This document shows, piece by piece, positions 11,224 through 30,719 of a stretch of DNA of 36,303 nt. The notes under the pieces are model-generated. The model did no database searches and had not been told where the DNA came from. It worked only from the letters and a program-made list of their open reading frames with translations. Where the stretch lies: the UHGV virus genome UHGV-1321070; one strand, written 5' to 3'. Every line of letters begins with the position of its first letter. Position 1 is the first letter of the stretch. The translations under genes were made by a program, and so were the position numbers. Origin of the DNA: a virus.

Positions 11224-11246
11224 TCTCTTAACGCGCTTTAAAATCC
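11224..11246 (+). promoter_or_regulatory. Conserved late-promoter motif, copy 1 (upstream of lysis operon)
   Basis: CTCTCTTAACGCGCTTTAAAATC, matching the consensus CTYCTTAA-N4-CTTTAAWATC also found at 24608 and 30698; about 50 bp upstream of the 11296 start. Confidence 0.5.
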
Positions 11247-11295
11247 TTCGCGCCCTGTATTTGTGATGCTGTCTCCACCAGATAAGGAGACACAC

Positions 11296-11646
11296 ATGAA
11301 AAACCTGAAAAAATTCATTCCCCCTGTTAAAAAACCTCGCCTCAGCGGCTGGCTGCTGACCTCAGTGCTGTTGCTGGGCACCATCGCTCTGGTCTCACCA
11401 CAGCAGCTGCCTGTTGTGATCTACAAGCTGGCACTCATCACGCTGGCAGCAGTGCTGGGTTACTGGCTTGACCGTTCGCTCTTCCCCAAAGCCCGTCCCG
11501 GTCAGTACCTGAAACATGACGACAGGCTGATGGCTGAAGGGCGTTTCCCGGTACAGACCGGCCTTCACCTGGTGTTTTCTGCTGCGTTAATCCGCCGTGC
11601 ACTGATTGTTGCAGCGGTCTGCCTGGCTGTTGCGATGGGGCTTTAA
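11296..11646 (+). CDS. Putative holin / lysis membrane protein
   Basis: Start moved to the ATG preceded by AAGGAGA; about 116 aa with three hydrophobic helices; immediately precedes the endolysin. Confidence 0.45.
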   Translation: MKNLKKFIPPVKKPRLSGWLLTSVLLLGTIALVSPQQLPVVIYKLALITLAAVLGYWLDRSLFPKARPGQYLKHDDRLMAEGRFPVQTGLHLVFSAALIRRALIVAAVCLAVAMGL

Positions 11647-11648
11647 TC

Positions 11649-12389
11649 ATGAACTGGCCGCAGATCACCTGGATTGTATGCATGTCCCTGAAACTGGCTT
11701 TCGAAGCCTTTCGGGTCTTCATCAGAACCGAACGCCTGTCAGTCCGCGCCGGGACCTTTCTGGTTCATATGGCATGGGTATTCTTTGTCGCAATGTTGCT
11801 CTGGTGTGGCGGCTTTTTTAGCCAGGCATGCGCAGCACAACCTCCGCAGGCTGCGCTGCAGTATCGCGATGATGTGATCCGTAATGCCCGGCTTGAATGG
11901 GGACTGTCTGCGCCGGTGGCCGATTTCGCCGCGCAACTGCATCAGGAAAGCGGCTGGCGACCTGATGCGATCTCGCCGGCTGGCGCTCAGGGACTGGCGC
12001 AGTTCATGCCTGCCACTGCCGACTGGATAAGCCAGTTGATACCGATGCTGAGCAGTCGTGAGCCGTTTAATCCGGCATGGGCTATCCGGGCGCTGGTCAG
12101 CTATGACCGCTGGCTGTGGCAGCGTGTCAGCGCCGCCAGTGACTGCGAGCGTATGGCCATGACACTGTCGGGCTATAACGGTGGTCTGGGCTGGGTACAA
12201 CGGGACAGGCGGCTTGCATCACAGAAAGGTCTGGACAGCACCCGCTGGTTCGGACATGTCGCCACGGTGAATGCCGGACGCAATGCGGCCAGCTGGCGGG
12301 AGAACCGCCATTATCCGCAGCGCATCCTGCGCGAACTGGCACCGCGATATCTCACATGGGGAGGCAGCAGTTGTGTGGCATCTGGTTAA
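11649..12389 (+). CDS. Endolysin, lytic transglycosylase (SLT domain)
   Basis: SLT catalytic region LHQESGWRPDAISPAGAQGLAQFMPATADW with the conserved E-S and AQGL.Q motifs; N-terminal hydrophobic segment. Confidence 0.75.
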   Translation: MNWPQITWIVCMSLKLAFEAFRVFIRTERLSVRAGTFLVHMAWVFFVAMLLWCGGFFSQACAAQPPQAALQYRDDVIRNARLEWGLSAPVADFAAQLHQESGWRPDAISPAGAQGLAQFMPATADWISQLIPMLSSREPFNPAWAIRALVSYDRWLWQRVSAASDCERMAMTLSGYNGGLGWVQRDRRLASQKGLDSTRWFGHVATVNAGRNAASWRENRHYPQRILRELAPRYLTWGGSSCVASG

Positions 12390-13023
12390 AAAGCTGCCGT
12401 GGCGCGGCATTCTGCTGGCCATTCTTATCAATGCCTTTCTGGTCGGCCTGTATGCCATGGGATACAGAAGTGGTCATGACTCTGCAAAGCGTGACGGTGA
12501 TACCGCGCTCAGTCAGTTGCAGTCAGCATTTGACGCGTACAAAACGGAGCAGGCAACGCTTGAGAATGCTGCGCTGCGGACCTGGGCCAGACGGTATCAG
12601 GAGCAGGTGGCCGCCGGGCAGCGGGCTGAAGCCAGTTATCTTGAGCAGATTGCTCAACTGGAGAGCCGGAATAAACAACTACAGGGGCAAATTAACGATG
12701 TCACACAGCGCTGGATTGATGAAAAAGGTAAGAGCCATCCCATTGAGTGCGTGTTTACTCGCGGTTTCGTGCGCCAGTACAACGCCGCACTCGGATATGA
12801 CAACGCATCCGTCGACACCGGTCATTCAGACTCAGTTGCCGCCGCTGGCACCCGCTCTGGCACAGCGACCGGGCAACCTGAAACCACTGACACCCGGTTA
12901 CGCGATTCGGGTGTCTCCCAGCGTGACGTTCTCGCCAACATCATCGACAACGCAGGACAATGTCGTCGCTGGCGGAACCAGATAAACGCGTTACTGGATG
13001 AACGGGAAGGATTACAGAAATGA
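12373..13023 (+). CDS. Rz-like inner-membrane spanin (i-spanin)
   Basis: GTG start after a GGGAGG RBS; N-terminal TM (WRGILLAILINAFLVGLYAMGY) followed by a long coiled-coil-like region; contains the embedded Rz1 frame. Confidence 0.55.
   Translation: MWHLVKKLPWRGILLAILINAFLVGLYAMGYRSGHDSAKRDGDTALSQLQSAFDAYKTEQATLENAALRTWARRYQEQVAAGQRAEASYLEQIAQLESRNKQLQGQINDVTQRWIDEKGKSHPIECVFTRGFVRQYNAALGYDNASVDTGHSDSVAAAGTRSGTATGQPETTDTRLRDSGVSQRDVLANIIDNAGQCRRWRNQINALLDEREGLQK
12719..12985 (+). CDS. Rz1-like outer-membrane lipoprotein spanin (o-spanin), embedded in +1 frame of Rz
   Basis: MKKVRAIPLSACLLAVSC lipoprotein signal with lipobox LAVSC, followed by a Pro-rich periplasmic segment; fully nested inside the Rz-like ORF. 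Confidence 0.6.
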   Translation: MKKVRAIPLSACLLAVSCASTTPHSDMTTHPSTPVIQTQLPPLAPALAQRPGNLKPLTPGYAIRVSPSVTFSPTSSTTQDNVVAGGTR

Positions 13024-13346
13024 CACTGCAGGTTGAATTCTGGACGGTGGTGAGTTTTCTGCTCACCTTCATGGGGTTTGTGGGAGGGCTCGCCAAATGG
13101 TTGTTCAGTAAAACAGAAGAACGCCAGGCGGCACGATTCGCCTCCCTTGAACAGGCCCTGCAACAATCCGCCTCCAACTGGGGCGAGCTGGAAAAAGAAT
13201 TTATGCGATTTAAAGCGGATTTACCGCTGAATTATGTCCGTCGAGAGGATTATATCCGTGGCCAGACAGTCATTGAGGCCAAACTGGACGCGCTTTATAA
13301 CAAACTGGAAGTGGTACAGCAGTACCGCAATACCGGAGGTCAATAA
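13020..13346 (+). CDS. Small membrane protein (108 aa), possible lysis accessory
   Basis: N-terminal TM helix (FWTVVSFLLTFMGFVGGLAKWLF) then a helical soluble region; start overlaps the Rz stop. Confidence 0.4.
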   Translation: MTLQVEFWTVVSFLLTFMGFVGGLAKWLFSKTEERQAARFASLEQALQQSASNWGELEKEFMRFKADLPLNYVRREDYIRGQTVIEAKLDALYNKLEVVQQYRNTGGQ

Positions 13347-13657
13347 TGGTCGATATTACCCGGGTACGCCGCGAATCCCTGCGCTGGAGTCTGCTGGTTG
13401 CCCTGAACAAGACCCGCCCTTACACCGCCAGCGAGACGCTGCTGCTGGATGTGTCCCGTGCCATCTACCCGGACACCACACCGCTGGAACTGCGCCGCGA
13501 ACTGGATTATCTGGCTGACCGTAAAATGGTTGATCTGGAGAAAAAACCTTCTGGCGACTGGTTTGCTGACCTGACCCGCCTCGGCGTAGACCTGGTGGAA
13601 TACACCGTGGAATGTGGTCCGGGTATTGCCCGCCCGGAAAAGTACTGGAGTGAATAA
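13346..13657 (+). CDS. Hypothetical protein (103 aa)
   Basis: Compact ORF translationally coupled to its neighbours in the late operon. Confidence 0.4.
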   Translation: MVDITRVRRESLRWSLLVALNKTRPYTASETLLLDVSRAIYPDTTPLELRRELDYLADRKMVDLEKKPSGDWFADLTRLGVDLVEYTVECGPGIARPEKYWSE

Positions 13658-14202
13658 TGGCCAGACGCAGCACAATAGAAAAGCTGCCGGAAGATGTGCG
13701 CCGCTGGCTTGAACGGGCGCTGACTGAATCCGGCTTCAGCGGGTATAACGAGCTGGAGTCCCTGCTGCGTGAGCGGGGGTACGTCATCAGCAAATCCGCT
13801 ATCCATCGCTATGGACAGAAGATTGAGCGCCGCTATGGTGCTATCCGTGCGGCAACAGAAGCGGCCCGCATGCTGACCGAAGGCGCAGCAGACGATCAGG
13901 ATGCGCGTTCGGAGGCTGTGATAGCCCTTATTCAGACCGAGCTGTTCGAGAGTATTGTCCAGTTGCAGGAGGCGGAAGAAGGCGAAGTCGATCCTAAAGA
14001 ACGCGTGGCCCTGCTGTCGAAGGTGGCGAAGAATGTGGCTACGCTGTCCCGCGCGTCCGTCAACCTCAAAAAGTTCCAGTCTGAAGTACGGGCCAGAGCG
14101 CAGCAGGCAGCCAGCAACGCCGAGAAAATTGCCCGTAAGGGGGGACTGTCAAGCGACGCAGTACAGGCGCTTCGTCGCGAGATTCTGGGGATTGCCACAT
14201 GA
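13657..14202 (+). CDS. Mu gp27-like protein (putative small terminase subunit)
   Basis: 181 aa, N-terminal HTH-like region, immediately upstream of the large terminase; position and size match Mu gp27. Confidence 0.55.
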   Translation: MARRSTIEKLPEDVRRWLERALTESGFSGYNELESLLRERGYVISKSAIHRYGQKIERRYGAIRAATEAARMLTEGAADDQDARSEAVIALIQTELFESIVQLQEAEEGEVDPKERVALLSKVAKNVATLSRASVNLKKFQSEVRARAQQAASNAEKIARKGGLSSDAVQALRREILGIAT

Positions 14203-15794
14203 CAAAATCATCCGGAGTGATTTTAAACGCCGCTGGCGGTGGCCCCGAAGGGATGAGTCCCATGGACGGGAGGAATAACCTTGCTCCCGTTTTGCCTGAT
14301 ACCTCGGCGCTGGATGCTCCTCCCGTTCTGTTGCCTTACCAGCAGCGCTGGGTGGCAGACACCTCTCCGCTTAAGGTGATAGAAAAGAGCCGTCGTACCG
14401 GTATTACATGGGCTGAGGCATCCGATAACGTACTGACCGCCGCCTCTTCTGCGCCAGCAGGCGGGATGAATGTGTATTACATCGCTTATAACCAGGACAT
14501 GACCGTCGAATACATTCAGGCGTGTGCGATGTGGGCACGGGCATTCAACTATGCGGCCAGTGAAATTGAAGAAGGATTCTGGGAAGAGGACGACGACGAC
14601 AAACACATCAGGACTTACACCATCAAATTTCCTGACTCCGGCTTTCGTATTGTTGCGCTCTCCAGCCGCCCGTCTAACCTGCGTGGCCGTCAGGGTATTA
14701 TTGTTATCGACGAAGCGGCGTTCCATGAGCAACTGGACGAACTGCTGAAAGCGGCGCTGGCGATGCTTATCTGGGGGGGAAAGGTACGCGTTATCTCCAC
14801 CCATAACGGTGACGACAATCCGTTCAATACGCTTATCGGGGATATCCGTGCCGGACGTCAGGGAGGCAGCATACATCGCATCACTTTCCGGGAAGCCGTA
14901 TCTGAGGGGCTGTTCCGGCGCGTCTGTCTGCGCACCGGGAAGGAATGGTCGGAGGCATCCGAGCAGGCCTGGATGGCATCGGTGTACAAATTCTACGGTG
15001 CCGGCGCATCCGAAGAGCTTGACTGTATTCCGGCCAACGGTGGCGGTGCCTGGCTGTCCCGTGCCCTGATAGAGTCCCGCATGTCCGCTGATACGCCGGT
15101 ATTGCGTCTGACCTGCAAGGAAGGTTATGAACTGCTGTCTGATGAGGTTCGCTTCCGCGAGACGCAGGACTGGCTTGATGAGTATCTGAAACCCTTGCTG
15201 GAGGCACTCCCCACTGATGCCCGCTCTTTCCTGGGGCGCGACTTTGGCCGTAGCGGTGATTTGTCGGTGGACTATCCCCTGCTGCAGGAGAAGAACCTGG
15301 TACGACGCGTGCCATTCGTACTGGAGCTGCGTAACGTGCCGTTCAGACAGCAGGAGCAAATCACCTGGTATCTGATGGATGGCCTGCCCGGTCTGCTGGG
15401 TGCAGCGTTTGATGCCCGTGGTAATGGTGCCTATCTGGCTGAATACGCCATGCAGCGCTACGGCTCCAGCCGGGTTCAGCAGGTGATGCCAACCGAAGGC
15501 TGGTACCGGGAGCATATGCCTCCGGTCAAAGCTGCACTGGAAGACGGTAACCTGGTGGACTTACCAAAGGATGAAGACACACTGGATGACCTGCGGGCCG
15601 TTCAGGTGGTGAACGGTGTCCCCCGCGTACCGGAGCAACGCTCAAAAGCAAAGGCTGACGGTGGTAAACGCCACGGGGATTCAGCCATCGCACTGGCGCT
15701 GGCGTATTTCGCCAGCCGTGAAATTAACAAAGGGCCGGTGAAGGCAAGCTCACGCCGTCGTCGTCAGGCGGCCCGTATGCTGGAGGGATTCTGA
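14199..15794 (+). CDS. Terminase large subunit (Mu gp28-like)
   Basis: 531 aa; ATPase-like motifs (IIVIDEAAF), position before portal; start overlaps the previous stop. Confidence 0.75.
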   Translation: MTKSSGVILNAAGGGPEGMSPMDGRNNLAPVLPDTSALDAPPVLLPYQQRWVADTSPLKVIEKSRRTGITWAEASDNVLTAASSAPAGGMNVYYIAYNQDMTVEYIQACAMWARAFNYAASEIEEGFWEEDDDDKHIRTYTIKFPDSGFRIVALSSRPSNLRGRQGIIVIDEAAFHEQLDELLKAALAMLIWGGKVRVISTHNGDDNPFNTLIGDIRAGRQGGSIHRITFREAVSEGLFRRVCLRTGKEWSEASEQAWMASVYKFYGAGASEELDCIPANGGGAWLSRALIESRMSADTPVLRLTCKEGYELLSDEVRFRETQDWLDEYLKPLLEALPTDARSFLGRDFGRSGDLSVDYPLLQEKNLVRRVPFVLELRNVPFRQQEQITWYLMDGLPGLLGAAFDARGNGAYLAEYAMQRYGSSRVQQVMPTEGWYREHMPPVKAALEDGNLVDLPKDEDTLDDLRAVQVVNGVPRVPEQRSKAKADGGKRHGDSAIALALAYFASREINKGPVKASSRRRRQAARMLEGF

Positions 15795-17290
15795 TGGCGA
15801 GGGGTATCTGGGTTTCACCCGATGAATTTGTTGCTTTTTCTGAGCCTCAGAAATCACTGACCGCGCAGATTGCCTCCCGCAGCCGCGCGATCGACTTTTA
15901 CGGACTGGGCATGTATCTGCCCAATCCTGATCCCATTCTCAAGGCTCAGGGACGGGATATCCGTATCTACCGCGAACTGCGCACCGACCCGCTGGTCGGG
16001 GGCTGTATCCGCAGACGTAAAGCAGCGCTTAAATCGCTGGAGCGTGGACTGGAGCGTGGTCACGCCTCTGCCCGGGTCTTCCGTTTCATCCGCGACATGC
16101 TCGACGATCTGGATCTGTCCCGCATCATCGGTGAAATGAGCGATGCCGTGCTCTACGGGTATCAGCCCTGTGAAATCATGTGGGGCCGTTCGGTCAGGTC
16201 GTGGGCGGTGACGGATATTGTCGGCAAACCGCCTGAGTGGTTTCAGTTTGATACGGACAACTGCCTGCGCTTCCGGGCGCGTGATGCGGGTGTGGAGGGT
16301 GAGCTGCTGTCACCGTCAAAATTCGTGGTGCCGGCACAGGATGCCTCGTATGACAATCCTTACGGTTTCCCGGACCTGTCCATGTGCTTCTGGCCGGTCG
16401 CCTTCAAGAAAGGCGGGATGAAATTCTGGCTCCGCTTTGCCGAAAAGTTTGGCTCCCCGTGGGTGATCGGTAAGCACCCGAGGGGCGCAAATGATGCAGA
16501 GATTGAAAAACTGCTGGACTCCATGGAGCAGATGGTGGAGGACGCGGTGGCCGCCATCCCCGATGACAGCAGTATTGAGCTCAGGGCAGCGGATGGCAAG
16601 GCAGACAGCAGCGAGGTATTTCGCGAGCTGATCACACTGTCACGCAGTGAGATCTCCATTGCATTACTTGGTCAGAATCAGACCACGGAAGCGAACAGTA
16701 ACAAGGCCTCTGCACAGGCCGGGCTGGAGGTAACGGCTGATATCCGCGATGCGGATGCGGACATCATTCAGGCAGCAGTGAATCAGGTTATCAGAACGGT
16801 GGTCACCCTGAACTTCGGCGATGTGCCGTGTCCGGTCTGGGCCATGTGGGAACAGGAGACCATTGATGACACCCGCGCCACCCGCGACGAAAAACTCACC
16901 CGGGCGGGTCTGCGTCTGACCCCGCAATACTTTAAGCGTGAGTACCAACTGCAGGACGGCGATATTGACGAGACATCACCGTCGGAACGCCAGAATAACA
17001 TGCTGCCGCTGTCATTTGCCGAGGCGATTGATGCCGATATTCAGGCTCAGCAGCAGCTTGACGACGCGCTGGACATTCTGATGAACGGAGGTGTGTTAAA
17101 TGGCACGCTGGAACCCGTCCTGGCACCTCTGTTTAAGCGGGTCGAAAACGGGGTTAACCCGACTGAGCTGCTGGGCGAACTGGCGGAGCTCTACCCTCAG
17201 ATGAACACGGACGATCTGCAGGAACGGCTGGCCCGTATTCTCTTTGTGGCAAATATCCGGGGACGTCTGCATGAGCGTGACAACGGCTGA
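15794..17290 (+). CDS. Portal protein (Mu gp29-like, DUF935)
   Basis: 498 aa, follows the terminase with overlapping TGATGG junction; size and position typical of Mu-type portal. Confidence 0.75.
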   Translation: MARGIWVSPDEFVAFSEPQKSLTAQIASRSRAIDFYGLGMYLPNPDPILKAQGRDIRIYRELRTDPLVGGCIRRRKAALKSLERGLERGHASARVFRFIRDMLDDLDLSRIIGEMSDAVLYGYQPCEIMWGRSVRSWAVTDIVGKPPEWFQFDTDNCLRFRARDAGVEGELLSPSKFVVPAQDASYDNPYGFPDLSMCFWPVAFKKGGMKFWLRFAEKFGSPWVIGKHPRGANDAEIEKLLDSMEQMVEDAVAAIPDDSSIELRAADGKADSSEVFRELITLSRSEISIALLGQNQTTEANSNKASAQAGLEVTADIRDADADIIQAAVNQVIRTVVTLNFGDVPCPVWAMWEQETIDDTRATRDEKLTRAGLRLTPQYFKREYQLQDGDIDETSPSERQNNMLPLSFAEAIDADIQAQQQLDDALDILMNGGVLNGTLEPVLAPLFKRVENGVNPTELLGELAELYPQMNTDDLQERLARILFVANIRGRLHERDNG

Positions 17291-18092
17291 ACTGGCGTAC
17301 TGCATGACGCTTCCCCCGAAGCGGGCAGTCAGTTACCTGAAGTCCAAAGGGTATCAGATTACCTGGGACTGGGAAGAAATGTGGCAGGAGGCCCATGCCC
17401 GCGCCTTTACCGTTGCTAAAGTGACCCGCCTGGATATCCTGGAAGATATTCGCGGGGCACTGCAGCAGGCTGTCGATGAAGGAAAAACCGATCGCTGGTT
17501 CCGGCAGGAGCTGGAGCCGGTGCTGAAGCGTAAGGGATGGTGGGGACCACGTGACACGACTGACCCGGTAACGGGTAAGCCGGTCACCATTCAGCAGGGC
17601 AGTCCGTGGCGGCTCGATACCATCTTTCGCACCAATATGTCCGTACTCTACAGCGCCGGTCGTTGGGCGGAACAGATGGAAAACGTCGACGACAGGCCGT
17701 ACTGGATGTATACCGGCATCAACGACAGCCATACCCGCAGGAGCCATCTGGCGCTGCATGGTCTGGTGCTGCGCTGGGATGACCCGTTCTGGCAGGCATT
17801 TTACCCGCCGAACGGCTGGCGCTGCCGCTGTAGTGTGATTGCCCTGAGTGCGGCGGATGTACGTGCCCGTGGCCTGAAGGTTATCAGCTCCGGCTCTGCC
17901 ATGGGCCAGGAACTGAAACTGGTCTCAGAGAAAACCGGCGAAATGCGGAACGTGGCCACCTTTAATACCGGCACCACGAAGGTGACCACCGACGTCGGCT
18001 GGTCTTATGCACCGGGGGCAGCATACCGTCCCGACCTGGCCCGCTATCAGGGTACGCTTCAGCCACTGGCACAACAGGAACTGAGAGGATAA
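17271..18092 (+). CDS. Head morphogenesis protein (Mu F / gp30-like)
   Basis: Start set at ATG 17271 (track ORF begins earlier, inside the portal gene); follows portal as Mu F does. Confidence 0.65.
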   Translation: MSVTTAELAYCMTLPPKRAVSYLKSKGYQITWDWEEMWQEAHARAFTVAKVTRLDILEDIRGALQQAVDEGKTDRWFRQELEPVLKRKGWWGPRDTTDPVTGKPVTIQQGSPWRLDTIFRTNMSVLYSAGRWAEQMENVDDRPYWMYTGINDSHTRRSHLALHGLVLRWDDPFWQAFYPPNGWRCRCSVIALSAADVRARGLKVISSGSAMGQELKLVSEKTGEMRNVATFNTGTTKVTTDVGWSYAPGAAYRPDLARYQGTLQPLAQQELRG

Positions 18093-18094
18093 CA

Positions 18095-18553: not shown

Positions 18554-18600
18554 GTTTTCTCTCTTCAGGCGGGTGATTTATCATTGCCAGCGAATGAGGG

Positions 18601-18630
18601 GCTGTATTACCTTTATAAAGGCTTTACAGC
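18601..18630. promoter_or_regulatory. Imperfect 30-bp palindrome in the G-I intergenic gap
   Basis: GCTGTAttaCCTTTATAAAGGcttTACAGC: outer 6-bp arms plus a perfect 12-bp central palindrome CCTTTATAAAGG (18610..18621) in a 214-bp non-coding gap. Confidence 0.4.
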
Positions 18631-18767
18631 CTCTGTTTTATAACCGCCTCCGGTTCACCGCATTGCTTTCCCTGTCCTTCTCCCCTGATGTTTTCTAAAG
18701 CAGATTAAAATCGCCGGGCCTGCATTTCTCACAAACTGTCTCCGACAACATAACGCGGGACAGCAAA

Positions 18768-19883
18768 ATGTCAGCCATTCACATTTTTAAAGCCGGTACT
18801 CATACCGATATGCACGGCAAAAAACTGCCGTTCACGCCAGACGATCTTGCCGCCTGCGTGAAAGCCTATGACCCGTCCGTCCATGAAGCACCACTCGTGA
18901 TTGGTCATCCCAGAACGGAAGACCCGGCGTGGGGCTGGGTGAAAGCCCTGTCGCTCAGCGGCGTCGATCTGATGGCAGAGCCTGCCCAGCTGGACCCGCA
19001 GTTTGCTGAGATGGTCACCGACGGACGATTCAAAAAAGTGTCCGCCTCTTTCTACCTCCCGGATTCACCGTCCAATCCGAAGCCCGGCGTGCTCTACCTT
19101 CGCCATGTGGGCTTTCTCGGGGCACAGCCACCTTCCGTCAAGGGGCTGAAACAGGTGTCCTTCAGTGAGCAGGAAGAAGGTGTGGTGGAGTTCGCCGACT
19201 GGCAGGCCATCACGAATGCCTCCCTGTGGGGAAAGCTGCGCGATTTTCTGATCGCCCGCTTCAGTCTGGACGAGGCAGAAAAAGTCCTGCCGGAATGGCA
19301 GCTCAACAGTCTGCGCGAAGAGGCGTACCGCGACACACTGTCGCAGGATGCAGCAGGTGCACAATTCAGTGAGACAGGCCCGGGGCCGTCTTCCGCAAGT
19401 AACGAGGAATCATCGATGACAAAAGAAGAGATTGAAGCCCTTCAGGAGGAGAACCGCCGCCTGAAGCAGCAGGCTGCTGATCGCGATGCGCGTGATGCAC
19501 AGGTCAGACAGGAGCAACTGCATAAGGACAATGTGGCCTTTGCAGAAAAACTGGTCGCAGAGGGCCGTCTGGCTCCCCGCGCCTCCTCCGTGGTGGTTGC
19601 CCTGCTGGATGCCGTCGCCGGTGGCGACAAGCCGGTGGAGTTTGCTGAGGGGGAAAGCCGCACACCGCTGGCCACCGCCTTTCGTTCATTGCTCTCCGAC
19701 GGGGAGCCGGTGATGAATTTCGCCGAACAGGCCACAAAAGAGCGTGTCGGCGACACGGTGAAGGTGGATGTGGCAGAGTTTGCGGAAGCCGATCCTGAGC
19801 GTCTGGCCCTGCATCAGAAAGCAGTGGCCCTGTCCAAAAAAGAAGGCATCAGCTATGAGGCTGCTGTCGCACGCTGCCTGTAA
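18768..19883 (+). CDS. Head protease / scaffold protein (Mu I-like)
   Basis: 371 aa with a C-terminal coiled-coil/scaffold-like half (EEIEALQEENRRLKQQ); located between G-like gene and major capsid. Confidence 0.65.
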   Translation: MSAIHIFKAGTHTDMHGKKLPFTPDDLAACVKAYDPSVHEAPLVIGHPRTEDPAWGWVKALSLSGVDLMAEPAQLDPQFAEMVTDGRFKKVSASFYLPDSPSNPKPGVLYLRHVGFLGAQPPSVKGLKQVSFSEQEEGVVEFADWQAITNASLWGKLRDFLIARFSLDEAEKVLPEWQLNSLREEAYRDTLSQDAAGAQFSETGPGPSSASNEESSMTKEEIEALQEENRRLKQQAADRDARDAQVRQEQLHKDNVAFAEKLVAEGRLAPRASSVVVALLDAVAGGDKPVEFAEGESRTPLATAFRSLLSDGEPVMNFAEQATKERVGDTVKVDVAEFAEADPERLALHQKAVALSKKEGISYEAAVARCL

Positions 19884-19897
19884 TTTAAGGAGAGAGC

Positions 19898-24300: not shown

Positions 24301-24302
24301 CG

Positions 24303-24584: not shown

Positions 24585-24607
24585 CATCACAGGGGCTCTG
24601 GCCCCTT

Positions 24608-24629
24608 CTTCTTAATCTCCTTTAATATC
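24608..24629 (+). promoter_or_regulatory. Conserved late-promoter motif, copy 2 (upstream of tail chaperone / tape measure operon)
   Basis: CTTCTTAATCTCCTTTAATATC; CATACT -10-like hexamer 19 bp downstream (24649..24654). Confidence 0.55.
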
Positions 24630-24681
24630 CGTCACGCGCTTCTCCCGACATACTGCCCTGAACTTACACAGGAGCACAATC

Positions 24682-25017
24682 ATGTCACAGACCCCATCCG
24701 ATACTTTTAAATTGTCTTATCCCTTCACCACTGCTGCAGGCACCAGAATTGAGCAGGTTGAACTGAAACGCCTGACGGTAAAAGACCTGAAGCAGGTGCG
24801 CAAAATCAGCAAAAACCCGGCAGACTGGGACGAACCGCTGATTGCCCGCAGTACTGGTCTTCTCCCGGAAGATCTCGACAATATGGATCTGGCTGATTAC
24901 CTGCAGTTACAGAAACGATTTCAGCTCATCACGGGGATGGGTGAGAGCAACCAGGGCGCTGACGCAGGCGCAGGGGCTGCTGGCGAGATGGTTCCGGTTT
25001 CAGCCGGGGGAGATTGA
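24682..25017 (+). CDS. Tail assembly chaperone (upstream frame)
   Basis: 111 aa acidic protein between tube and tape measure; overlapped by a +1-frame ORF (24842..25099). Confidence 0.55.
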   Translation: MSQTPSDTFKLSYPFTTAAGTRIEQVELKRLTVKDLKQVRKISKNPADWDEPLIARSTGLLPEDLDNMDLADYLQLQKRFQLITGMGESNQGADAGAGAAGEMVPVSAGGD

Positions 25018-25099
25018 TGCCCTCGATACTGACGATCTGGAGATGTGGCTGGAGCAGGCTGAAGAGCAAATCAAAAGCGAGTACGGCGACAAATCATAG
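24842..25099 (+). other. +1-frame ORF overlapping the chaperone 3' end (candidate frameshift extension)
   Basis: The +1 frame stays open to 25099 while the 0 frame ends at 25017; a run of five G (GCC GGG GGA) sits just before the 0-frame stop. Confidence 0.35.
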
Positions 25100-25104
25100 T
25101 ACAG

Positions 25105-25125
25105 ACAGCCGCCAGTAGCGGCTGT
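25105..25125 (+). other. Stem-loop ACAGCCGC-cagta-GCGGCTGT upstream of the tape-measure gene
   Basis: 8-bp perfect stem with 5-nt loop in the 75-bp gap before 25175; no clear U-tract. Confidence 0.35.
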
Positions 25126-25174
25126 TCTGCGTTATCCCCTCACGTCTTTTCACCTTCCCCGGAGGTTAACCACT

Positions 25175-27865
25175 ATGTCGGGACAGTTTTCAGTCGGCGT
25201 TGTTATCGGCGGGATGATTGGCAGCACATTCCGTTCTGCAATGAGCGGTACCCGCCGTGCGCTTGATTCCCTGAGCGATACCTCACGCCGCCTGCAGGAA
25301 CGTCAGAACGCTTTAACCCGTGCAACAGAACGTTATGGTCAACTGGGTTCTTCCCGGATGCAGCATCTCAACAGCGAGCTGCTGCGGGTAAGCCGCACCA
25401 TGGAGCAAATTGAGCGCCAGCAGCGCCGTCTGTCAGCGGCATCCGCTACCAGTGATGCGCTGAAAGCTAACCGCATGGCGCTGTATGGTCAGGGGATTGA
25501 AGCGTATAGCATGGCACAGACTGTTTATCATACGGTTTCCCCTGCCGTTCAGCAGTCCATGTCTTTTCAGGACAAAATGATTGATATGTCGATCACCGCA
25601 AAATATGACAATAAAACGCGGGATGCACTTGCCGGACAGATAAAAGGCTGGGCGCTTAAATACAATCAGTATCAGGATGAGCTGCAGGAGGCGGTGGGTT
25701 CACTCATCAGCGACAATATTGATAATGTGTCAGATATCGGTTTTCTGATGCCGGATATTGCCCGCGCGGCAACGGCAACACGCACGTCTGCTCAGGACTG
25801 GGCAAAAGTGGCCGCAGTCTGGCAAAACTCCCTGAAAGGTGCGGCCAGAGATTTTGGTGCCGTTCAGAATATTATGGCTTATGCCGGTGACCAGGGGTCA
25901 TTTGAAATCCCGGATCAGGTCAAGTGGATGCAGTCCCTGGCCCCAATGATGGCGGGTATTGCCAGTGGAAAAGAGGCTGTTGCTGAAATCGGGGCCAGTC
26001 TCCAGATAGCAAAAATCGGTGCAGGTTCCACCGACGAGGCAGCCAATAATTTTAAAAACTTTCTTACCAAAATTTTTGCCCGCGATACTCAGAAACAGTT
26101 TGCTGATCTGGGTATTGATTTGCAGGGATCTATTGCGAGTTATAAGGCTGCGGGGATCTCTCCGATTGAAGGGATGTTGAGTGTTATAGAACGTTACCTC
26201 AATGCCAAAAGCCCCGAAGCGCTGGCCGACTTCAAATCCGCCATGAAAATAAAGAATGATACGGCAAGAGATGAGGCACTTCAGGCTCTGGCGAAAAACT
26301 TTGGTCTGGGTGATATGTTCGCGGATATGCAGGTCATGGCATTTATCCGCCCGATGCTGGCCAACATGGACAGATATCGCGAGATCCGCGCCGGTGCTCT
26401 CAGGGCTGCGGATAACGATTTGCTTGCCAGTGCTTATGATCAGCGGCTGAAATCTCCCCTTGAAGCCACTAAAGCACTTATGGTCAGCAGTCACGATCTG
26501 GCAATTACGCTGGGCGATCAATTAGCTCCATCTTTTATTTCTCTGACTCAGGACTTGCTCCCACTCATTCAGGGGACAAAACACTGGGTAGCGACTCACC
26601 CGCAATTTGTCAGTGGGGCTTTTAAGCTCATCAGTGCGCTCCTTGCGATTAAGATAGCGACTATTGGTCTCAAACTGGGGCTGAATCTCCTTATTTCCCC
26701 CTTTGTAAGTGTCTGGAAAAATGCTGTTTTACTTCGGGCCAACTGGCTTCGTCTGTCGCTCGCACTGGGGCAAGGCGGTAAGCTCCGCTGGCTGGTGACC
26801 GGATTTAGCGCCGTCGCCAGAGGAGCCAGAACACTGAGTGGCGTGCTCTCCGGGGGGCTGGTTCGCGGAATTATGCTCGCCGGACGTGCTGTTCTCTGGA
26901 TTGGACGTGCGCTGATGATGAATCCCATCGGTCTCGTTATCACCGCTGTCGCGGCAGCAGCTTACCTTATCTACCGCAACTGGGGGGCAGTCAGTGGCTG
27001 GTTTAAACAGCGCTGGGCTGACATTCAGGAAGCCTTTAACGGCGGCATTGTGGGAATTGGTAAGTTGCTGATTAACTGGTCGCCGGCAGGCCTGCTCTAT
27101 AAAGCCTTTGCGGCTGCGCTGAAATATTTCGGCGTTGCTCTGCCGGCAAAGTTCACCGACTTCGGTGGTCATCTTATCGACGGTCTGATTAACGGTATCA
27201 AAAACAAATGGGAGTCGCTCAAATCCAGTGTAACCGGAATGGGTGACAGCATCAGTGGCTGGTTCAGCGAAAAGCTGGGCATTCATTCGCCGAGCCGCGT
27301 GTTTATGGGCTTTGGTGACAATATCGCGCAGGGGGCCGCCATTGGCCTGCAGCGGACCACTCCGCTTGCAGCTCTGGCCGGGCAGCGAATGGCCAGTGAA
27401 CTGCTCCCCAAAATGCCCGTGAGCATTCAGGGGCCAGAAATACGGGATAACACTTCAGGTGTTCGCTTCAGTATGCCGTTGCCCGATATCAATGGGTTTA
27501 TGTCGTCTGCTAAAAATGCGATCGGAGCCGTAATCAATAGTTTGTCTTCCATGCCCGCTATTCCGCTCTCCACCCGGGCATCGATTTTACCAGGGCAACG
27601 TCTGGCAAATGAGATGACACCGGATGTTCCCCGTATCCCCTCGCCTGAAATCCTGGCTGCCGGATATTCAGGCCGTGGTGCAGCTGCAACCGGCGGTGGA
27701 ACGTCTGGTGGTATCCAGGTCAGCTTTAATCCTCAGTTTTTCCTCAATGGCAGGGAAACCACAGCGCCTGCCGGACTGACTGGCGCCCTGAATATGAGCC
27801 TGCATGAGCTGGAAAAAATGCTGGAGCGTCTGCTGGCTCAGAAACAACGTAAGGAGTACCGCTGA
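25175..27865 (+). CDS. Tail tape measure protein
   Basis: 896 aa, helical N-terminal half and hydrophobic central segments, located after the tail chaperone. Confidence 0.8.
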   Translation: MSGQFSVGVVIGGMIGSTFRSAMSGTRRALDSLSDTSRRLQERQNALTRATERYGQLGSSRMQHLNSELLRVSRTMEQIERQQRRLSAASATSDALKANRMALYGQGIEAYSMAQTVYHTVSPAVQQSMSFQDKMIDMSITAKYDNKTRDALAGQIKGWALKYNQYQDELQEAVGSLISDNIDNVSDIGFLMPDIARAATATRTSAQDWAKVAAVWQNSLKGAARDFGAVQNIMAYAGDQGSFEIPDQVKWMQSLAPMMAGIASGKEAVAEIGASLQIAKIGAGSTDEAANNFKNFLTKIFARDTQKQFADLGIDLQGSIASYKAAGISPIEGMLSVIERYLNAKSPEALADFKSAMKIKNDTARDEALQALAKNFGLGDMFADMQVMAFIRPMLANMDRYREIRAGALRAADNDLLASAYDQRLKSPLEATKALMVSSHDLAITLGDQLAPSFISLTQDLLPLIQGTKHWVATHPQFVSGAFKLISALLAIKIATIGLKLGLNLLISPFVSVWKNAVLLRANWLRLSLALGQGGKLRWLVTGFSAVARGARTLSGVLSGGLVRGIMLAGRAVLWIGRALMMNPIGLVITAVAAAAYLIYRNWGAVSGWFKQRWADIQEAFNGGIVGIGKLLINWSPAGLLYKAFAAALKYFGVALPAKFTDFGGHLIDGLINGIKNKWESLKSSVTGMGDSISGWFSEKLGIHSPSRVFMGFGDNIAQGAAIGLQRTTPLAALAGQRMASELLPKMPVSIQGPEIRDNTSGVRFSMPLPDINGFMSSAKNAIGAVINSLSSMPAIPLSTRASILPGQRLANEMTPDVPRIPSPEILAAGYSGRGAAATGGGTSGGIQVSFNPQFFLNGRETTAPAGLTGALNMSLHELEKMLERLLAQKQRKEYR

Positions 27866-28749
27866 TGTTTGCCGTACTGGGTGATATTGAGTTTGAGCTG
27901 ATTACCTACTGGGACGGCTTCGAGGCCACGTTCGGCGTCGATTATGCGGAGCATGCCCGCATCGGGGGTAAGCCTGGCCTGCAGTTCGTCGGCGACAGGC
28001 TGGACGAAATCCAGATAACTCTGGTTTTCCATCAGCATTATTGTGTACCCGATGTGGAGCTGGCGAGACTGCGAACAGCCATGAAAGCCCATCAGGCACT
28101 GGCGCTGGTCTTCGGCAACGGTGACTATCGTGGCTGGTTCGTGATTACCGATGTGACCGCAACCAGCGAGCAGACAGACAGCACCGGTAACGTGCTGGCT
28201 GTCAGTGCCACCGTGTCTCTCCGGGAATACACCGGTGATCCGAAAAATCCTCTGCAACCACCGGCAATACGCACGAAGCTCCCGGGTGTCGGGGCGGTCT
28301 CCGGTGCCATTCCTTCACCTTCAGGGGTGGCGCAGTTCATCCGCAACGGCGTCAACTATGCGAAACAGGCGCAGTCTGTACTCCAGACCACTATCAGCGC
28401 CGTTCGGGTGACACAGAAAATGAAGGATAACCCCGTTGTCGCACTGACCCGTGTGCCGGGGCTGATGAGCGGACTGGGTAATATCTCCGGGGCTCTGGGG
28501 AAAAGTGTTCCGGCGTTTAACGCACTCTCTGAATCCATGCCCGATGCCATCAGTCTGGCCAGAACAGCCAGCGAAGCAGCCACGTATGTACAGCAGGCAC
28601 AGTCTGCGCTGAGTGGTGTGGACAAAAGAAATATTGCAGGTGCTCTGGATACCGTTTCCGGGCAGCTTAACGCCGCCGGCACAGCATTCAACCGCATGTC
28701 TCCGGGATTAAGTGCAATGGCCGCCAGAATACTGACGAGGAGTGTGTGA
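27865..28749 (+). CDS. Tail protein, P2 gpU / Mu N (DNA circularisation)-like
   Basis: 294 aa; N-terminal region (GDIEFEL ... GKPGLQFVGDRLDEIQITLVF ... GWFVITDVT) resembles the gpU-type fold; position after the tape measure. Confidence 0.55.
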   Translation: MFAVLGDIEFELITYWDGFEATFGVDYAEHARIGGKPGLQFVGDRLDEIQITLVFHQHYCVPDVELARLRTAMKAHQALALVFGNGDYRGWFVITDVTATSEQTDSTGNVLAVSATVSLREYTGDPKNPLQPPAIRTKLPGVGAVSGAIPSPSGVAQFIRNGVNYAKQAQSVLQTTISAVRVTQKMKDNPVVALTRVPGLMSGLGNISGALGKSVPAFNALSESMPDAISLARTASEAATYVQQAQSALSGVDKRNIAGALDTVSGQLNAAGTAFNRMSPGLSAMAARILTRSV

Positions 28750-28961
28750 TGTTTCTTGAACATGTTACCCGTGACGGAGAGCGCTGGGATTCGCTGGCAT
28801 GGCAGTACTACGGTGACCCGCTGGGCTATCCCCGGATTATTGCCGCCAATCCGCACGTGGCCATCACGCCGGTGCTGCCCTCCGGGCTGTTGTTACTGAT
28901 CCCGGTGATTGAGACTGAAGAAGCCCGTACAGAAGAGGATATTGCCCCATGGCTGAGATAA
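28746..28961 (+). CDS. Tail protein X-like (P2 gpX family)
   Basis: 71 aa (GERWDSLAWQYYGDP ... IIAANP) resembling the small LysM-like tail protein X. Confidence 0.5.
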   Translation: MMFLEHVTRDGERWDSLAWQYYGDPLGYPRIIAANPHVAITPVLPSGLLLLIPVIETEEARTEEDIAPWLR

Positions 28962-30103
28962 ACAGCACTGCGCAAGTCACATCAGCGTTAACCGGCGTCA
29001 GCGATGTGCTGACACCGGTGTTCACTCTGTGGTATCTGCAGAAAAACATCACCTCTGATATCGCGCCTTATGTCACCCGTGTGACCTGGAGCGATAACAT
29101 CAAAAATGAGTCCGATACCATTGAGGTGGAGCTGGACGACACCGATGGCCGCTGGCTGGATAAGTGGTATCCGGGCAAGGGTGACACGCTGACGCTGAAA
29201 ATGGGCTATCAGGGCGAGAAGCTGCTGTCCTGCGGTACGTTCTCTATAGACGAGATCGAAGTGAGTTCGCCCGCTTCCGTTGTTTCTATCCGTGGGGTGG
29301 CCACCTCGGTTAATAGTGCTCTGCGGACTAAATCCAGCCGTGGTTTTGAGAACACCACGCTGGCAGCTGTTGCGGGGCGGATTGCCAGAAAGCACCGGCT
29401 GAAACTGGTGGGCAGCATTGAGTCCATCAGAATCGACCGGGTGACCCAGTATGCTGAAACCGACGTGGGTTTTCTGCGCCGGCTGGCCAGCGAGTATGGT
29501 TATGCAGTGAAAGTGGTCAGTGACCAGCTGATTTTTTCTCATCTGGCCACACTGCGCAGTCAGGAGACGGTCAGGCAGTTAAAACCGCAGGATGTGGCCC
29601 GCTTTTCCCTGCGTGACACCATCAACCGGGTCTATAAATCTGCAAAGGTAAAACACCAGAAAAGCAGCAGTAAAAAACTGATCGTCCACGAAGCTGATGG
29701 TGGTACCCGTGAAAGCGACAAAAAGCTCAAAGGTGGTAAGGTTACCAGCGCTGACTCACTTAAAGTTAACAGCCGCGTCAGCGACCCGGACAGTGCCCGG
29801 ATTAAAGCGGATTCAGCACTGGCCAGACATAACGAATACCAGCAGAACGGCTCCCTGACGCTGACGGGAACACCTCAACTGACAGCAGGCAACAAAATTG
29901 AACTGGTGGGTTTTGGGCAGTTATCCGGGCCATGGCTCATAACCACTGCCCGCCATGCGTTTGACCGTAACAGCGGCTACACCACAGAGCTGGAAGTGGC
30001 ACGGGGGCCAGTCACAAGAGGGAAAAAACAAAAAACTCAGAAACTCACGGTTTATCACCCGGATGGCAGTACATCGACGGTGATTAAGGAGAAGAAAAAA
30101 TGA
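28949..30103 (+). CDS. Baseplate hub protein (P2 gpD / Mu P-like)
   Basis: 384 aa; position and size match the gpD-type hub that follows gpU/gpX. Confidence 0.65.
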   Translation: MAEINSTAQVTSALTGVSDVLTPVFTLWYLQKNITSDIAPYVTRVTWSDNIKNESDTIEVELDDTDGRWLDKWYPGKGDTLTLKMGYQGEKLLSCGTFSIDEIEVSSPASVVSIRGVATSVNSALRTKSSRGFENTTLAAVAGRIARKHRLKLVGSIESIRIDRVTQYAETDVGFLRRLASEYGYAVKVVSDQLIFSHLATLRSQETVRQLKPQDVARFSLRDTINRVYKSAKVKHQKSSSKKLIVHEADGGTRESDKKLKGGKVTSADSLKVNSRVSDPDSARIKADSALARHNEYQQNGSLTLTGTPQLTAGNKIELVGFGQLSGPWLITTARHAFDRNSGYTTELEVARGPVTRGKKQKTQKLTVYHPDGSTSTVIKEKKK

Positions 30104-30696
30104 CTGGTGTCACTCGTCAGGTCGGTACGGTCAGTGCCGTTGATGCCGACAGGGTTCAGGCCCGCGTTCGTCTGCCTGAATGCGATAACCTGCGCACAAA
30201 CTGGCTTAACGTGCTGCAGCGCAATACCCAGGATAACAAAGATTACTGGCTCCCTGACGTGGGGGAGCAGGTTGAGGTGCTGCTCGATGCCAACGGCGAG
30301 GATGGTGTTATTCTGGGCGCGGTGTATTCAGACGTCGATAAACCACCGTTCAGTGACAAAAATATCCGGGGAACCCGGTTTGCTGATGGTGCAGAGTACA
30401 GCTACAACCGGAAGACGCACACTCTGACCATCCGGGGCGGCATTGAGCATATTGTCATTGAGTGTGGTGCTGATGTGGTATTGAAAACACAGAAAGCCAC
30501 GATTGACGCACCGGAAACCGAACTTACCGGAGATCTGCGTGTCAGGGGAAAGCTGATTTACGAAGGAGGCATGGCGGGTTCTGGTGGTAAAGGTGTTACC
30601 GCGACCATCCATGGCAATATCGAGATTAAAGGGAATGCCCATGCCACGGGCAGTATGCTGTCTGATGGCGAAAACTCCAGCCACCACTCCCACTGA
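30100..30696 (+). CDS. Baseplate spike protein (P2 gpV-like)
   Basis: 198 aa with the gpV-type N-terminal OB-fold-like region and C-terminal beta-strand spike repeats. Confidence 0.65.
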   Translation: MTGVTRQVGTVSAVDADRVQARVRLPECDNLRTNWLNVLQRNTQDNKDYWLPDVGEQVEVLLDANGEDGVILGAVYSDVDKPPFSDKNIRGTRFADGAEYSYNRKTHTLTIRGGIEHIVIECGADVVLKTQKATIDAPETELTGDLRVRGKLIYEGGMAGSGGKGVTATIHGNIEIKGNAHATGSMLSDGENSSHHSH

Positions 30697-30697
30697 G

Positions 30698-30719
30698 CTT
30701 CTTAAACGCCTTTAATATC
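30698..30719 (+). promoter_or_regulatory. Conserved late-promoter motif, copy 3 (upstream of baseplate/fibre operon)
   Basis: CTTCTTAAACGCCTTTAATATC; AATACT -10-like hexamer 19 bp downstream (30739..30744), the same spacing as copy 2. Confidence 0.55.

Follow-up and report, generated by a model that had tools for sequence, protein, structure and literature searches.

Four candidate late promoters sharing a TTAA-N6-TTAA box, and a single Mor-type activator, in a BcepMu-like prophage of Escherichia coli

The prophage and its four intergenic sites

The window, that is, the whole 36,303-nucleotide stretch of virus genome UHGV-1321070 analysed here, is a BcepMu-like transposable prophage of E. coli, and approximately 12% of the complete genomes of this species (646/5,426) carry the family. 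The gene order is that of BcepMu, gene for gene, with 54% identity to BcepMu in Mor and 46% in the capsid protein. The layout is Bcepmuvirus-like: a divergent early operon includes a DDE transposase, a B-like ATPase, GemA, and Mor, and the late part joins Mu-like head genes to a P2-like contractile tail. Relatives of the prophage occur in Klebsiella, Photorhabdus, Pectobacterium, Burkholderia, Ralstonia, Pseudomonas, and Pasteurella, and their hosts include pathogens of plants and insects. The leftward early operon closes with a gene (218..607, minus strand) whose product is annotated in RefSeq as a Mor family protein; this product matches the full Pfam Mor profile (PF08765, E = 1.3e-43) and has relatives in the PDB among structures of both Mor (1rr7) and C (9l0x and 9vw8). 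An earlier note on this DNA had taken it for the only Mor/C-family activator of the phage, and tblastn with Mu Mor, Mu C, and BcepMu gp01 agrees, finding no second Mor/C copy in the window.

The same note had described a 22-bp motif, CTYCTTAA-N4-CTTTAAWATC, upstream of three late operons. The motif is present exactly at 24608-24629 and 30698-30719 and with two mismatches at 11224-11245, while shuffled sequences give 0.00 exact matches and 0.04 matches at three or fewer mismatches. The second and third copies are identical at 20/22 positions, as had been claimed, and the three sites do lie upstream of operon starts, 32-53 bp from the annotated start codons at 11296, 24682, and 30751. The number of promoters has to be raised from three to four, however, since a site at 18695-18712 (CTAAAGCAGATTAAAATC) had been missed, and although the motif is real, its informative core is a dyad with a -10 at a fixed distance, not the 22-mer as first written. 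The pattern YTAA-N6-TTAAWATC has exactly four matches in the window, all on the plus strand, against 0.01 expected, and adding A-N2-CTG at a fixed distance retains the identical four. All four sites share one layout: YTAA-N6-TTAAWATC, 19 nt, a -10-like hexamer, then G. An element ATACT had been placed 19 bp downstream of the second and third copies; the distance is indeed equal in both, but 19 nt is the distance to the hexamers CATACT and AATACT, and ATACT itself begins at 20 nt. With a weight matrix built from 52 sites, all of them in distant lineages, the four sites score 34-39 bits and the next independent match scores 7 bits. All four boxes are in intergenic gaps at operon starts, and only on the late strand. 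A fifth TTAA-N6-TTAA at 35707 is inside invertase codons (A-L-K-C-L-K) with no -10 at the right distance and was therefore treated as chance. The left half-site is weak in some copies, being CTAA in the P_I promoter of the window and TTAG and CTGA in BcepMu.

The candidate site of the first promoter, P_lys, is box 1 (TTAACGCGCTTTAAAATC, 11228..11245), which precedes the holin/lysis and head operon; its hexamer GATGCT (11265..11270), 19 nt from the box, is a poor -10, and the predicted start at approximately 11277 is followed by the holin ATG at 11296. Box 2 of P_I (CTAAAGCAGATTAAAATC, 18695..18712) has the best matrix score, 38.9 bits, and lies within a 215-bp gap ahead of the head protease/scaffold gene (ATG 18768), with the hexamer CAAACT at 18732..18737 and a predicted start at approximately 18744. 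Upstream of box 2 is a palindromic hairpin (CCTTTATAAAGGCTTTACAGCC) followed by CTGTTTTAT (18610..18641), which contains a terminator-like site (18619-18632) and is probably the terminator of the lysis/head unit, judging from its sequence and position; an exact 18-mer of the hairpin is conserved in 14 loci, and BcepMu has a variant. Box 3 (TTAATCTCCTTTAATATC, 24612..24629), another candidate site, precedes the tail assembly chaperone and tape measure genes, with the hexamer CATACT at 24649..24654, a predicted start at approximately 24661, and the ATG at 24682. Just 5' of this box, an intrinsic-terminator-like hairpin (AGGGGCTCTGGCCCCT, then a T-rich run; 24591..24606) ends the upstream transcription unit; it is first among the terminator-like sites listed, and equivalents with a T run precede the box in BcepMu and in enteric relatives. 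Because such hairpins precede the second and third promoters, the late region is proposed to consist of separate activator-dependent units. Box 4 (TTAAACGCCTTTAATATC, 30702..30719) is a candidate site between the baseplate genes V and W. Its hexamer, AATACT (30739..30744), predicts a start at 30751, which is the A of the W start codon, so the W mRNA would be leaderless. The distance of 6-7 nt from the W hexamer to the ATG is kept in enteric, Burkholderia, Ralstonia, Pseudomonas, and Pasteurella relatives. All of these boxes, hexamers, and hairpins are on the plus strand.

Conservation of the box and of the Mor recognition helix

A scan of the whole element and of related prophages, as the earlier note had proposed, gives the four sites here and the box at matching operon starts across genera: the same box is ahead of the lysis, head, tail-chaperone, and baseplate operons of the relatives, while the spacers diverge. 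Homologues of holin, head protease, tail chaperone, and W are preceded by sites in more than 40 loci, and in 882 kb of related loci 77/86 plus-strand matches are no more than 140 bp upstream of a holin, I, tail-chaperone, or W homologue. The box is found before the holin gene in 16 unique relatives, and box 2 likewise recurs ahead of head protease (I) homologues. Among 74 unique sites, columns that took no part in site selection are nearly invariant (A at +5, hexamer A2, and hexamer T6, each in 72/74), and the 19-nt spacer carries at most 0.4 bit per column; these conservation statistics overstate significance, because the sequences are related and so not independently sampled. Ralstonia YO107_2 and Pseudomonas Komp_PAO1_1, with 63-64% G+C, have exactly four boxes each, which in Komp_PAO1_1 are at the same four operon starts and in the unannotated YO107_2 are on the late strand with matching spacing. 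Pasteurella AFS-2018a has one box at each of the four operon starts.

Phages that carry the box have a common Mor recognition helix, VS(L/M)Q(W/F)(V/I)Y. The Mor helix of phage JBD25 is LTPSSIY, and the lysis, head-protease (I), and tape-measure (TMP) promoters of this phage have a different box, CTTCCAAAAGAC; the helices and boxes of Mu Mor and Mu C differ as well. The link between helix type and box type is drawn from few lineages, which also share ancestry.

Proposed activation by the Mor-type protein and alternatives

The motif most likely marks four late promoters that would be activated by the single Mor-type activator of the phage, which is phage control of the expected kind. A probability of about 0.8 is assigned to the reading that a dimer of this protein activates all four from the TTAA-N6-TTAA boxes. 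The lytic program would then be a two-step cascade, in which the leftward early operon ends in the sole Mor/C-family gene (218-607) and the Mor dimer would bind an imperfect dyad, T-n-TTAA-N6-TTAA-W-A, centred approximately 43 bp upstream of four rightward starts with a weak -10 (nAnnCT) and no -35. Binding adjoining the -35 position would allow host sigma-70 RNA polymerase to start at approximately 11277, 18744, 24661, and 30751, and the targets would be the lysis and head-packaging genes, the head protease and capsid genes, the tail chaperone and tape measure genes, and the baseplate and fibre genes. We observe the motif itself, with its statistics and fixed geometry, find it conserved at homologous positions, and see it together with one type of Mor helix; we infer Mor binding, activation, and the exact starts. 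The searchable literature yielded no start site, footprint, or activation assay for this phage group and no description of the recognition box, although it did not cover the 2004 BcepMu genome paper, so the box may have been described before.

The boxes could be genuine late-promoter elements that are recognised not by the Mor-family protein but by another factor, such as the GemA-like gp16, an early HTH protein, host IHF or Fis, or the C-terminal domain of the RNA polymerase alpha subunit in the manner of an UP element. The box is A/T-rich and placed like UP elements and class II activator sites, the early region encodes several further HTH proteins, and the assignment of the box to Mor was made from sequence only. 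However, the box follows the type of Mor helix and not the host: E. coli, Burkholderia, Pseudomonas, and Pasteurella phages share it, while the Pseudomonas phage JBD25 combines a different Mor helix with a different box at the corresponding places. In its dyad form and its place near -43 the box also fits Mor/C sites, and Mor is the only regulator of a known late-activator type in the element, which together make another factor unlikely.

Ordinary constitutive sigma-70 promoters are less probable than that. TTAAAA or TTAATA would serve as the -35-like hexamer, and TTAAAA does match TTGACA at 4/6 positions with a -10-like hexamer following, but the spacer of 21 nt is outside the range of 16-18 nt, and none of the four sites gave a -35/-10 pair in a consensus promoter scan. 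Constitutive expression of holin and tail genes would kill the lysogen, and the starts that dRNA-seq reported for an uninduced BcepMu lysogen include those of gp53 and gp20, while the four predicted late positions have none (PMC4603805 Table S3). The least probable reading, to which hardly any weight is given, is that the repeats are not transcriptional at all, being either remnants of a duplicated intergenic cassette or sites that serve transposition enhancement, gyrase action, packaging, nucleoid organisation, or a similar DNA transaction. The element is transposable, and the gyrase site of Mu is between G and I, a gap that here holds one box; nevertheless, all copies are on the late strand with the hexamer at a fixed 19 nt and, in most, a start codon 39-66 nt away, and in every lineage the boxes coincide with operon starts. 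Flanks and spacer diverge, and conservation is confined to the box and the hexamer, the pattern of footprint-like selection and not of descent from a shared cassette.

If the Mor-type protein is the activator of the four promoters, the result is a testable map of the late regulon, with one activator, four boxes, and four predicted starts. Operons and start codons could be annotated better; W, for example, would be marked as leaderless, and BcepMu gene 32 would receive its probable true start. The activator and its promoter would also form a compact pair whose orthogonal box could make it useful for synthetic circuits or for reporting prophage induction. The TTAA-N6-TTAA box and the JBD25-type box would be second and third recognition codes in a family whose studied sites had so far been those of Mu Mor and Mu C only, and the helix-to-DNA code of the family can now be approached because the Mor and C transcription complexes have been solved.

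Inverted repeats over the promoters and comparison with known systems

Each promoter is also overlapped by an inverted repeat on the plus strand. At P_lys (11263..11297), TGTCTCC in the -10/discriminator pairs with the Shine-Dalgarno and AUG of the holin gene (GGAGACA..CAU). This fold has -12.3 kcal/mol (z = -2.35) against -0.5 for RNA from the predicted start, the pairing is possible only in RNA begun upstream of the promoter, and the 7-bp stem is kept in 12 relatives. The repeat CTGTC.CCG / CGGGACAG (18736..18763) spans the P_I start region and leader, with a fold of -10.7 kcal/mol (z = -3.65) against -1.8 from the predicted start; its arms vary by lineage, for example CTGCCTCTATTA/TAATAGAGGCAG in Photorhabdus. 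At the box-3 promoter (24654..24676), TGCCCTG pairs with CAGGAGCA, the Shine-Dalgarno of the chaperone gene, and the fold is -8.3 kcal/mol (z = -2.62) against 0. At W, the loop of the hairpin GGGGGCA-ATAC-TGCCCCC (30733..30750; -15.1 kcal/mol, z = -3.16) holds most of the -10 hexamer and its stem abuts the ATG, an arrangement found with other stems in BcepMu (GCGGC-aacatg-GCCGC) and Pasteurella (CCCTG-taatat-CAGGG). A tentative proposal, given slightly less than even odds, is that all late operons of the phage family would be doubly gated, by a Mor-type activator at TTAA-N6-TTAA and by an anti-Shine-Dalgarno inverted repeat at each promoter. We infer such a role for the promoter-embedded hairpins: RNA reading in from the host, the early region, or the preceding operon would be translationally silent, and only RNA from the activated promoter would be translated, as leaderless RNA at W and, in G+C-rich relatives, also at the head protease gene. 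If true, the lethal late genes of a prophage that inserts at random would be insulated throughout the family, in a form that covaries with lineage.

The nearest precedents for such gating are the T4 late genes e, soc, 49, and I-TevI and the fold-back inhibition of IS10, in which read-through RNA hides the ribosome binding site and transcripts that start inside the hairpin are translatable. Here too the -10/discriminator is complementary to the downstream Shine-Dalgarno/AUG region, and the folds, which are predicted only, have -8 to -15 kcal/mol for read-through RNA and 0 to -2 for RNA from the predicted start. Unlike these cases, the gating would cover all late operons of a temperate transposable phage, and the hairpin at W, like that in G+C-rich relatives, has the -10 within it and ends against an AUG predicted to be leaderless.

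P2-like genes (V, W, J, I, D, U, X) encode the tail and baseplate, but the control is not that of P2. The P2/186 late promoters PP, PO, PV, and PF are likewise four, activator-dependent, and without a -35, but they are activated by Ogr/B; the P2 box TGT-N12-ACA, which in P2 lies near -55, is absent from -120 to +60 of all four sites, no Ogr-type zinc-finger gene is annotated in the element, and the baseplate promoter here is between V and W while that of P2 is upstream of V.

The closest likeness is to the late promoters of Mu, and the analogy drawn in the earlier note holds for every feature that sequence can test (dyad, -10, no -35, operon starts). The dyad to which Mu C binds has its centre at -43.5 and overlaps the position of an absent -35, and a -10 is present (PMC2582627). 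In the prophage, the centre of the imperfect TTAA-N6-TTAA dyad is 30.5 bp upstream of the first hexamer base at 4/4 sites, against 31.5 bp in Mu Pmom, and would be at approximately -42.5 to -43.5 if transcription, whose starts are predicted and not mapped, begins 7-8 nt after the hexamer. Both systems have a small dimeric Mor/C-family activator, four late promoters with a recognisable -10 and no -35, and two 4-bp arms 6 bp apart (TTAT-N6-ATAA in Pmom), and two of the four in Mu also precede the lysis genes and the head protease gene I. The third and fourth, however, precede the tail chaperone and baseplate W genes here but P and mom in Mu, the box is TTAA-N6-TTAA-W-A, the recognition helix is VSLQWVY and not LSQPQIY, the protein identity to C is approximately 37% over part of the length, and early and late regions are divergent where those of Mu are colinear. 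One activator also replaces the Mor-then-C relay of Mu, so no middle promoter is expected. In some respects the protein more closely resembles Mor: its best PDB match is Mor (1rr7, E = 1.1e-09), its gene is at the distal end of the early operon adjoining gemA, and Mor too binds a dyad immediately 5' of a poor -35, at the Mu middle promoter Pm. Mu Mor, however, serves one promoter that drives a second activator, while the protein described here, judged by its predicted sites, appears to act directly on the structural and lysis operons, as C does in Mu.

Late-operon sites in the window

Four sites in the window, each upstream of a late operon, are likely, with a probability of roughly four in five as judged from sequence, to be activator-dependent late promoters bound by a Mor-type protein. 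When aligned on the right-hand TTAA, they read (T/C)TAA-N6-TTAAWATC, followed by 19 nt, a -10-like hexamer and a G. Because TTAA is self-complementary, the core of this box is a dyad, TTAA-N6-TTAA; the dyad flanks are partly symmetric (T-n-TTAA ... TTAA-W-A), and the box of a Pasteurella phage is a perfect 16-bp palindrome (TTTAAAGC/GCTTTAAA). The hexamer begins 30.5 bp downstream of the dyad centre, which places the centre at -42.5 to -43.5, given a predicted start 7-8 nt past the hexamer.

The lysis promoter P_lys, before the holin gene, has its box at 11228-11245, the hexamer GATGCT at 11265-11270 and a predicted start at 11277, leaving a 19-nt leader before the start codon at 11296. P_I, which precedes the head protease/scaffold gene (I), has its box (CTAAAGCAGATTAAAATC) at 18695-18712, within a 215-bp gap ahead of the start codon at 18768, and the hexamer CAAACT at 18732-18737; from the predicted start at 18744 the leader would be 24 nt. 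At the tail-chaperone promoter the box is at 24612-24629, the hexamer CATACT at 24649-24654, the predicted start at 24661 and the start codon at 24682 (leader 21 nt), while at the baseplate W promoter the box is at 30702-30719, the hexamer AATACT at 30739-30744, and predicted start and start codon coincide at 30751 (leader 0 nt). A terminator-like hairpin (24591-24606), first in the list from the terminator scan, lies directly upstream of the chaperone box, and a conserved palindromic hairpin with a T run (18610-18641) is found ahead of the P_I box. Its palindromic element (18610-18627, CCTTTATAAAGGCTTTAC), in the gap that separates the G-like from the I-like gene, recurs exactly in 14 of the compared loci, has a variant in BcepMu, and looks like a terminator. 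The same place in Mu holds a strong gyrase site.

An earlier note had reported a 22-mer, CTYCTTAA-N4-CTTTAAWATC, at three late operons. The 22-mer is exact at 24608 and 30698 and has two mismatches at 11224 (chance expectation from shuffles, 0.00 for exact copies and 0.04 for up to three mismatches), and the second and third copies agree at 20 of 22 positions, as described. The note also placed ATACT 19 bp downstream of these two copies; the distance is indeed the same at both, but the gap to ATACT is 20 nt, and is 19 nt only to CATACT or AATACT. All three reported sites are present, but the set was incomplete, a fourth copy, the P_I box, having been overlooked. The + strand of the window holds exactly four copies of TTAAWATC, and YTAA-N6-TTAAWATC has four matches against 0.01 expected.

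A consensus scan predicted a -35/-10 pair at none of the four sites; TTAAAA, if taken as a -35 element, would leave an overlong spacer of 21 nt to the -10. A Mu C-type box (TTAT-N6-ATAA) and a P2-type Ogr box (TGT-N12-ACA) were both sought at the four sites and are absent. A fifth TTAA-N6-TTAAAA (35707-35724) was rejected as a promoter; it lies inside the DNA invertase gene, where it forms A-L-K-C-L-K codons, and has no -10-like hexamer at the required spacing. Phage KP12, a relative, also carries a TTAA-N6-TTAA of this type in its invertase gene, presumably from conserved A-L-K-x-L-K codons, and the copy at 35707 is probably a by-product of coding sequence.

Conservation and the candidate activator

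The comparison drew on 40 loci, each surrounding a capsid homologue in a species-representative genome, and on the complete genomes of BcepMu, KP12, Ralstonia YO107_2, Pseudomonas Komp_PAO1_1, Pasteurella AFS-2018a, JBD25, and Mu. The motif scan of related prophages that the earlier note had proposed found the box at equivalent operon starts across genera: it recurs before the holin, I, chaperone, and W homologues in Klebsiella, Mixta, Pantoea, Erwinia, Photorhabdus, Xenorhabdus, Pectobacterium, Brenneria, Burkholderia, Eikenella, and Gallibacterium, with box flanks and 19-nt spacer that differ between these genera. In 882 kb the strict pattern matches the + strand 86 times, and 77 of these matches are no more than 140 bp upstream of a homologue of one of these four genes. 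The unannotated record of Ralstonia YO107_2 (64% G+C) has exactly four matches, on the late strand only and with spacing like that of the window; in Komp_PAO1_1 (63% G+C) the lysis, head protease, chaperone, and W genes are each preceded by a near-identical box (CTTTAAACCCGATTAAAAGC), exactly four in all; and Pasteurella AFS-2018a, with a genome colinear as in Mu, has TCTTTAAAGCnCTTTAAAATC at those four places. The box is absent from the loci of distant capsid relatives in Melioribacteraceae, Sphingomonas, and Sphingobium, so not all phages with this capsid have it.

Among 74 unique sites, columns that were left out of site selection are nearly invariant (A at +5, A at hexamer position 2, and T at hexamer position 6, each in 72 of 74); hexamer position 5 is C in 61 and the next base G in 61, while spacer columns carry at most 0.4 bit each. 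A weight matrix trained on distant lineages only picks out precisely the four sites of the window, with scores of 34-39 bits, and the site overlooked in the earlier note scores highest. Related sequences share ancestry, and site counts are not independent trials; the contrast of box and hexamer columns with spacer columns is nevertheless, as read from the alignment, the pattern of a selected promoter.

Only one Mor/C homologue is found in the window (218-607, minus strand). The recognition helix region, the second helix of the helix-turn-helix, was set against the late-promoter box of each phage. The helix is VSLQWVY in the window, VSLQWIY in BcepMu, VSLQWVY in Ralstonia YO107_2, VSLQFVY in Komp_PAO1_1, and VSMQWIY in Pasteurella AFS-2018a, all with boxes of the TTAA-N6-TTAA type. 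The Pseudomonas phage JBD25 has the helix LTPSSIY and the box GCyCCTTCCAAAAGAC at its lysis, head protease (I), and tape-measure promoters (approximately 13330, 21745, and 27265), the last with a terminator hairpin just before it; Mu Mor (VTFNTVY) and Mu C (LSQPQIY) each have their own site. Together with the dyad shape and a location close to -43, this co-variation leads us to infer that the box is linked to the Mor-type protein.

Differential RNA-seq of the uninduced BcepMu lysogen Burkholderia cenocepacia J2315 lists starts for gp53, for gp20, and inside the early region, and none of the four predicted BcepMu late starts (chromosome 3: 598421, 591094, 585374, and 579132) is in that list (PMC4603805, Table S3). 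Their absence fits promoters that are silent without activator, and says nothing about where they fire. The same lysogen data contain a very strong start antisense to the B-like transposition gene gp08, at BcepMu approximately 4367 (+), or J2315 chromosome 3 605588 (PMC4603805), which suggests abundant antisense RNA within the BcepMu early operon during lysogeny; the counterpart region in the window is 4060-5265.

Leaderless W and promoter-embedded inverted repeats

The W start codon is 6 nt past the -10-like hexamer (window 30739-30753) and has no Shine-Dalgarno sequence; the W mRNA is therefore predicted to be leaderless. This geometry is kept in Burkholderia, Ralstonia, Pseudomonas, and Pasteurella relatives, and the BcepMu sequence suggests that gene 32 may start at 18862, not at the annotated 18850.

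Every late promoter is embedded in an inverted repeat (11263-11297, 18736-18763, 24654-24676, and 30733-30750) whose -10/discriminator part can pair with the Shine-Dalgarno or AUG region further downstream. Read-through RNAs, modelled as starting 8 nt upstream of the hexamer, fold stably, while RNAs from the predicted starts of holin, I, and chaperone do not: -12.3 kcal/mol (z -2.35) against -0.5 for holin, -10.7 (z -3.65) against -1.8 for I, and -8.3 (z -2.62) against 0 for chaperone. For W the read-through RNA has -15.1 kcal/mol (z -3.16); the W hairpin holds the -10 in its loop and ends its stem at the AUG. Similar hairpins occur at some promoters of G+C-rich phages (lysis and head protease genes of BcepMu, YO107_2, and Komp_PAO1_1). 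Most of 58 unique relatives have the same inverted-repeat arrangement with lineage-specific arms, for example CTGCCTCTATTA/TAATAGAGGCAG in Photorhabdus and ACTCCAGTTAT/ATAACTGGAGT in Pasteurella, and the median duplex energy is -12.45 kcal/mol for cognate arms versus -8.0 for mismatched partners. RNAalifold gave no consensus structure for mixed-lineage head protease leaders, because hairpin registers differ between lineages, and for holin leaders a 7-bp stem with one double change only; support for the hairpins accordingly comes from per-sequence energies and the mismatched-partner control, not from column-wise covariation.

T4 e, soc, and 49 and IS10 fold-back inhibition provide precedents for silent read-through RNA. 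By analogy, the hypothesis is that read-through RNA would be translationally silent and that only RNA begun at the activated promoter would be translated. If true, this would be independent support for the predicted start sites.

The prophage and its likeness to Mu

Between hycI and ascB, E. coli MS20677 carries a prophage with 99.9% identity to the late half of the window; among 5,426 complete E. coli genomes, 578 contain most of it and 646 contain part of it. Judged by the RefSeq annotation of the MS20677 copy and comparison with Burkholderia phage BcepMu, the window is a BcepMu-like transposable phage. Its leftward early operon encodes a Ner-like HTH protein, a DDE transposase (5237-7006), a B-like ATPase, Gam, and GemA, with the Mor-family gene last; the rightward late region opens with the holin gene and continues with head genes of Mu type and a contractile tail of P2 type. 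Pfam matches include Mor (E = 1.3e-43), GemA, holin, tail chaperone, and gpW, and an Rfam scan of the whole window matched no family.

The tape measure gene (25175-27865) has 2,691 bp against 2,952 bp in the otherwise 99.9% identical MS20677 prophage, a difference of 261 bp that makes the tail-length ruler polymorphic in length. A low-G+C block (8993-11165; 0.43-0.47 against 0.55-0.60 elsewhere) separates the repressor gene from the lysis promoter and holds three genes of unknown function, including a leftward AAA/ABC-ATPase-like gene (10689-11165); its gene content is unlike that at the same position in KP12 and BcepMu, and it looks like accessory cargo. A Gin-like serine invertase gene (35563-36135) adjoins an oppositely oriented tail-fibre fragment (35018-35491, minus strand), which by analogy with the Mu G segment indicates a putative invertible host-range segment.

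Activator-dependent late promoters of the Mor/C type are already a known kind, and a specialist would expect them here. No description of the box was found in literature on BcepMu-like phages and Mor late promoters, a scope outside which the 2004 BcepMu genome paper falls. What is new and testable is the defined box, the single-activator cascade, a possible translational insulation, and the predicted leaderless W mRNA.

In Mu, late promoters lack a -35 although a -10 is present, and the binding site of C is an imperfect dyad of 16 bp with its centre at -43.5 (PMC2582627); the Mu sequence puts the centre of the Pmom dyad, TTAT-N6-ATAA, 31.5 bp from its hexamer. The analogy with Mu late promoters drawn in the earlier note is supported by sequence geometry and comparative genomics: arm length, spacer, and dyad-hexamer distance (within 1 bp) are alike, and both phages would have promoters ahead of the lysis genes and of the head protease gene I. 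The window differs from Mu in box sequence and recognition helix, in where the two tail promoters stand, in its divergent genome layout, and in having one activator where Mu has the Mor-then-C relay.
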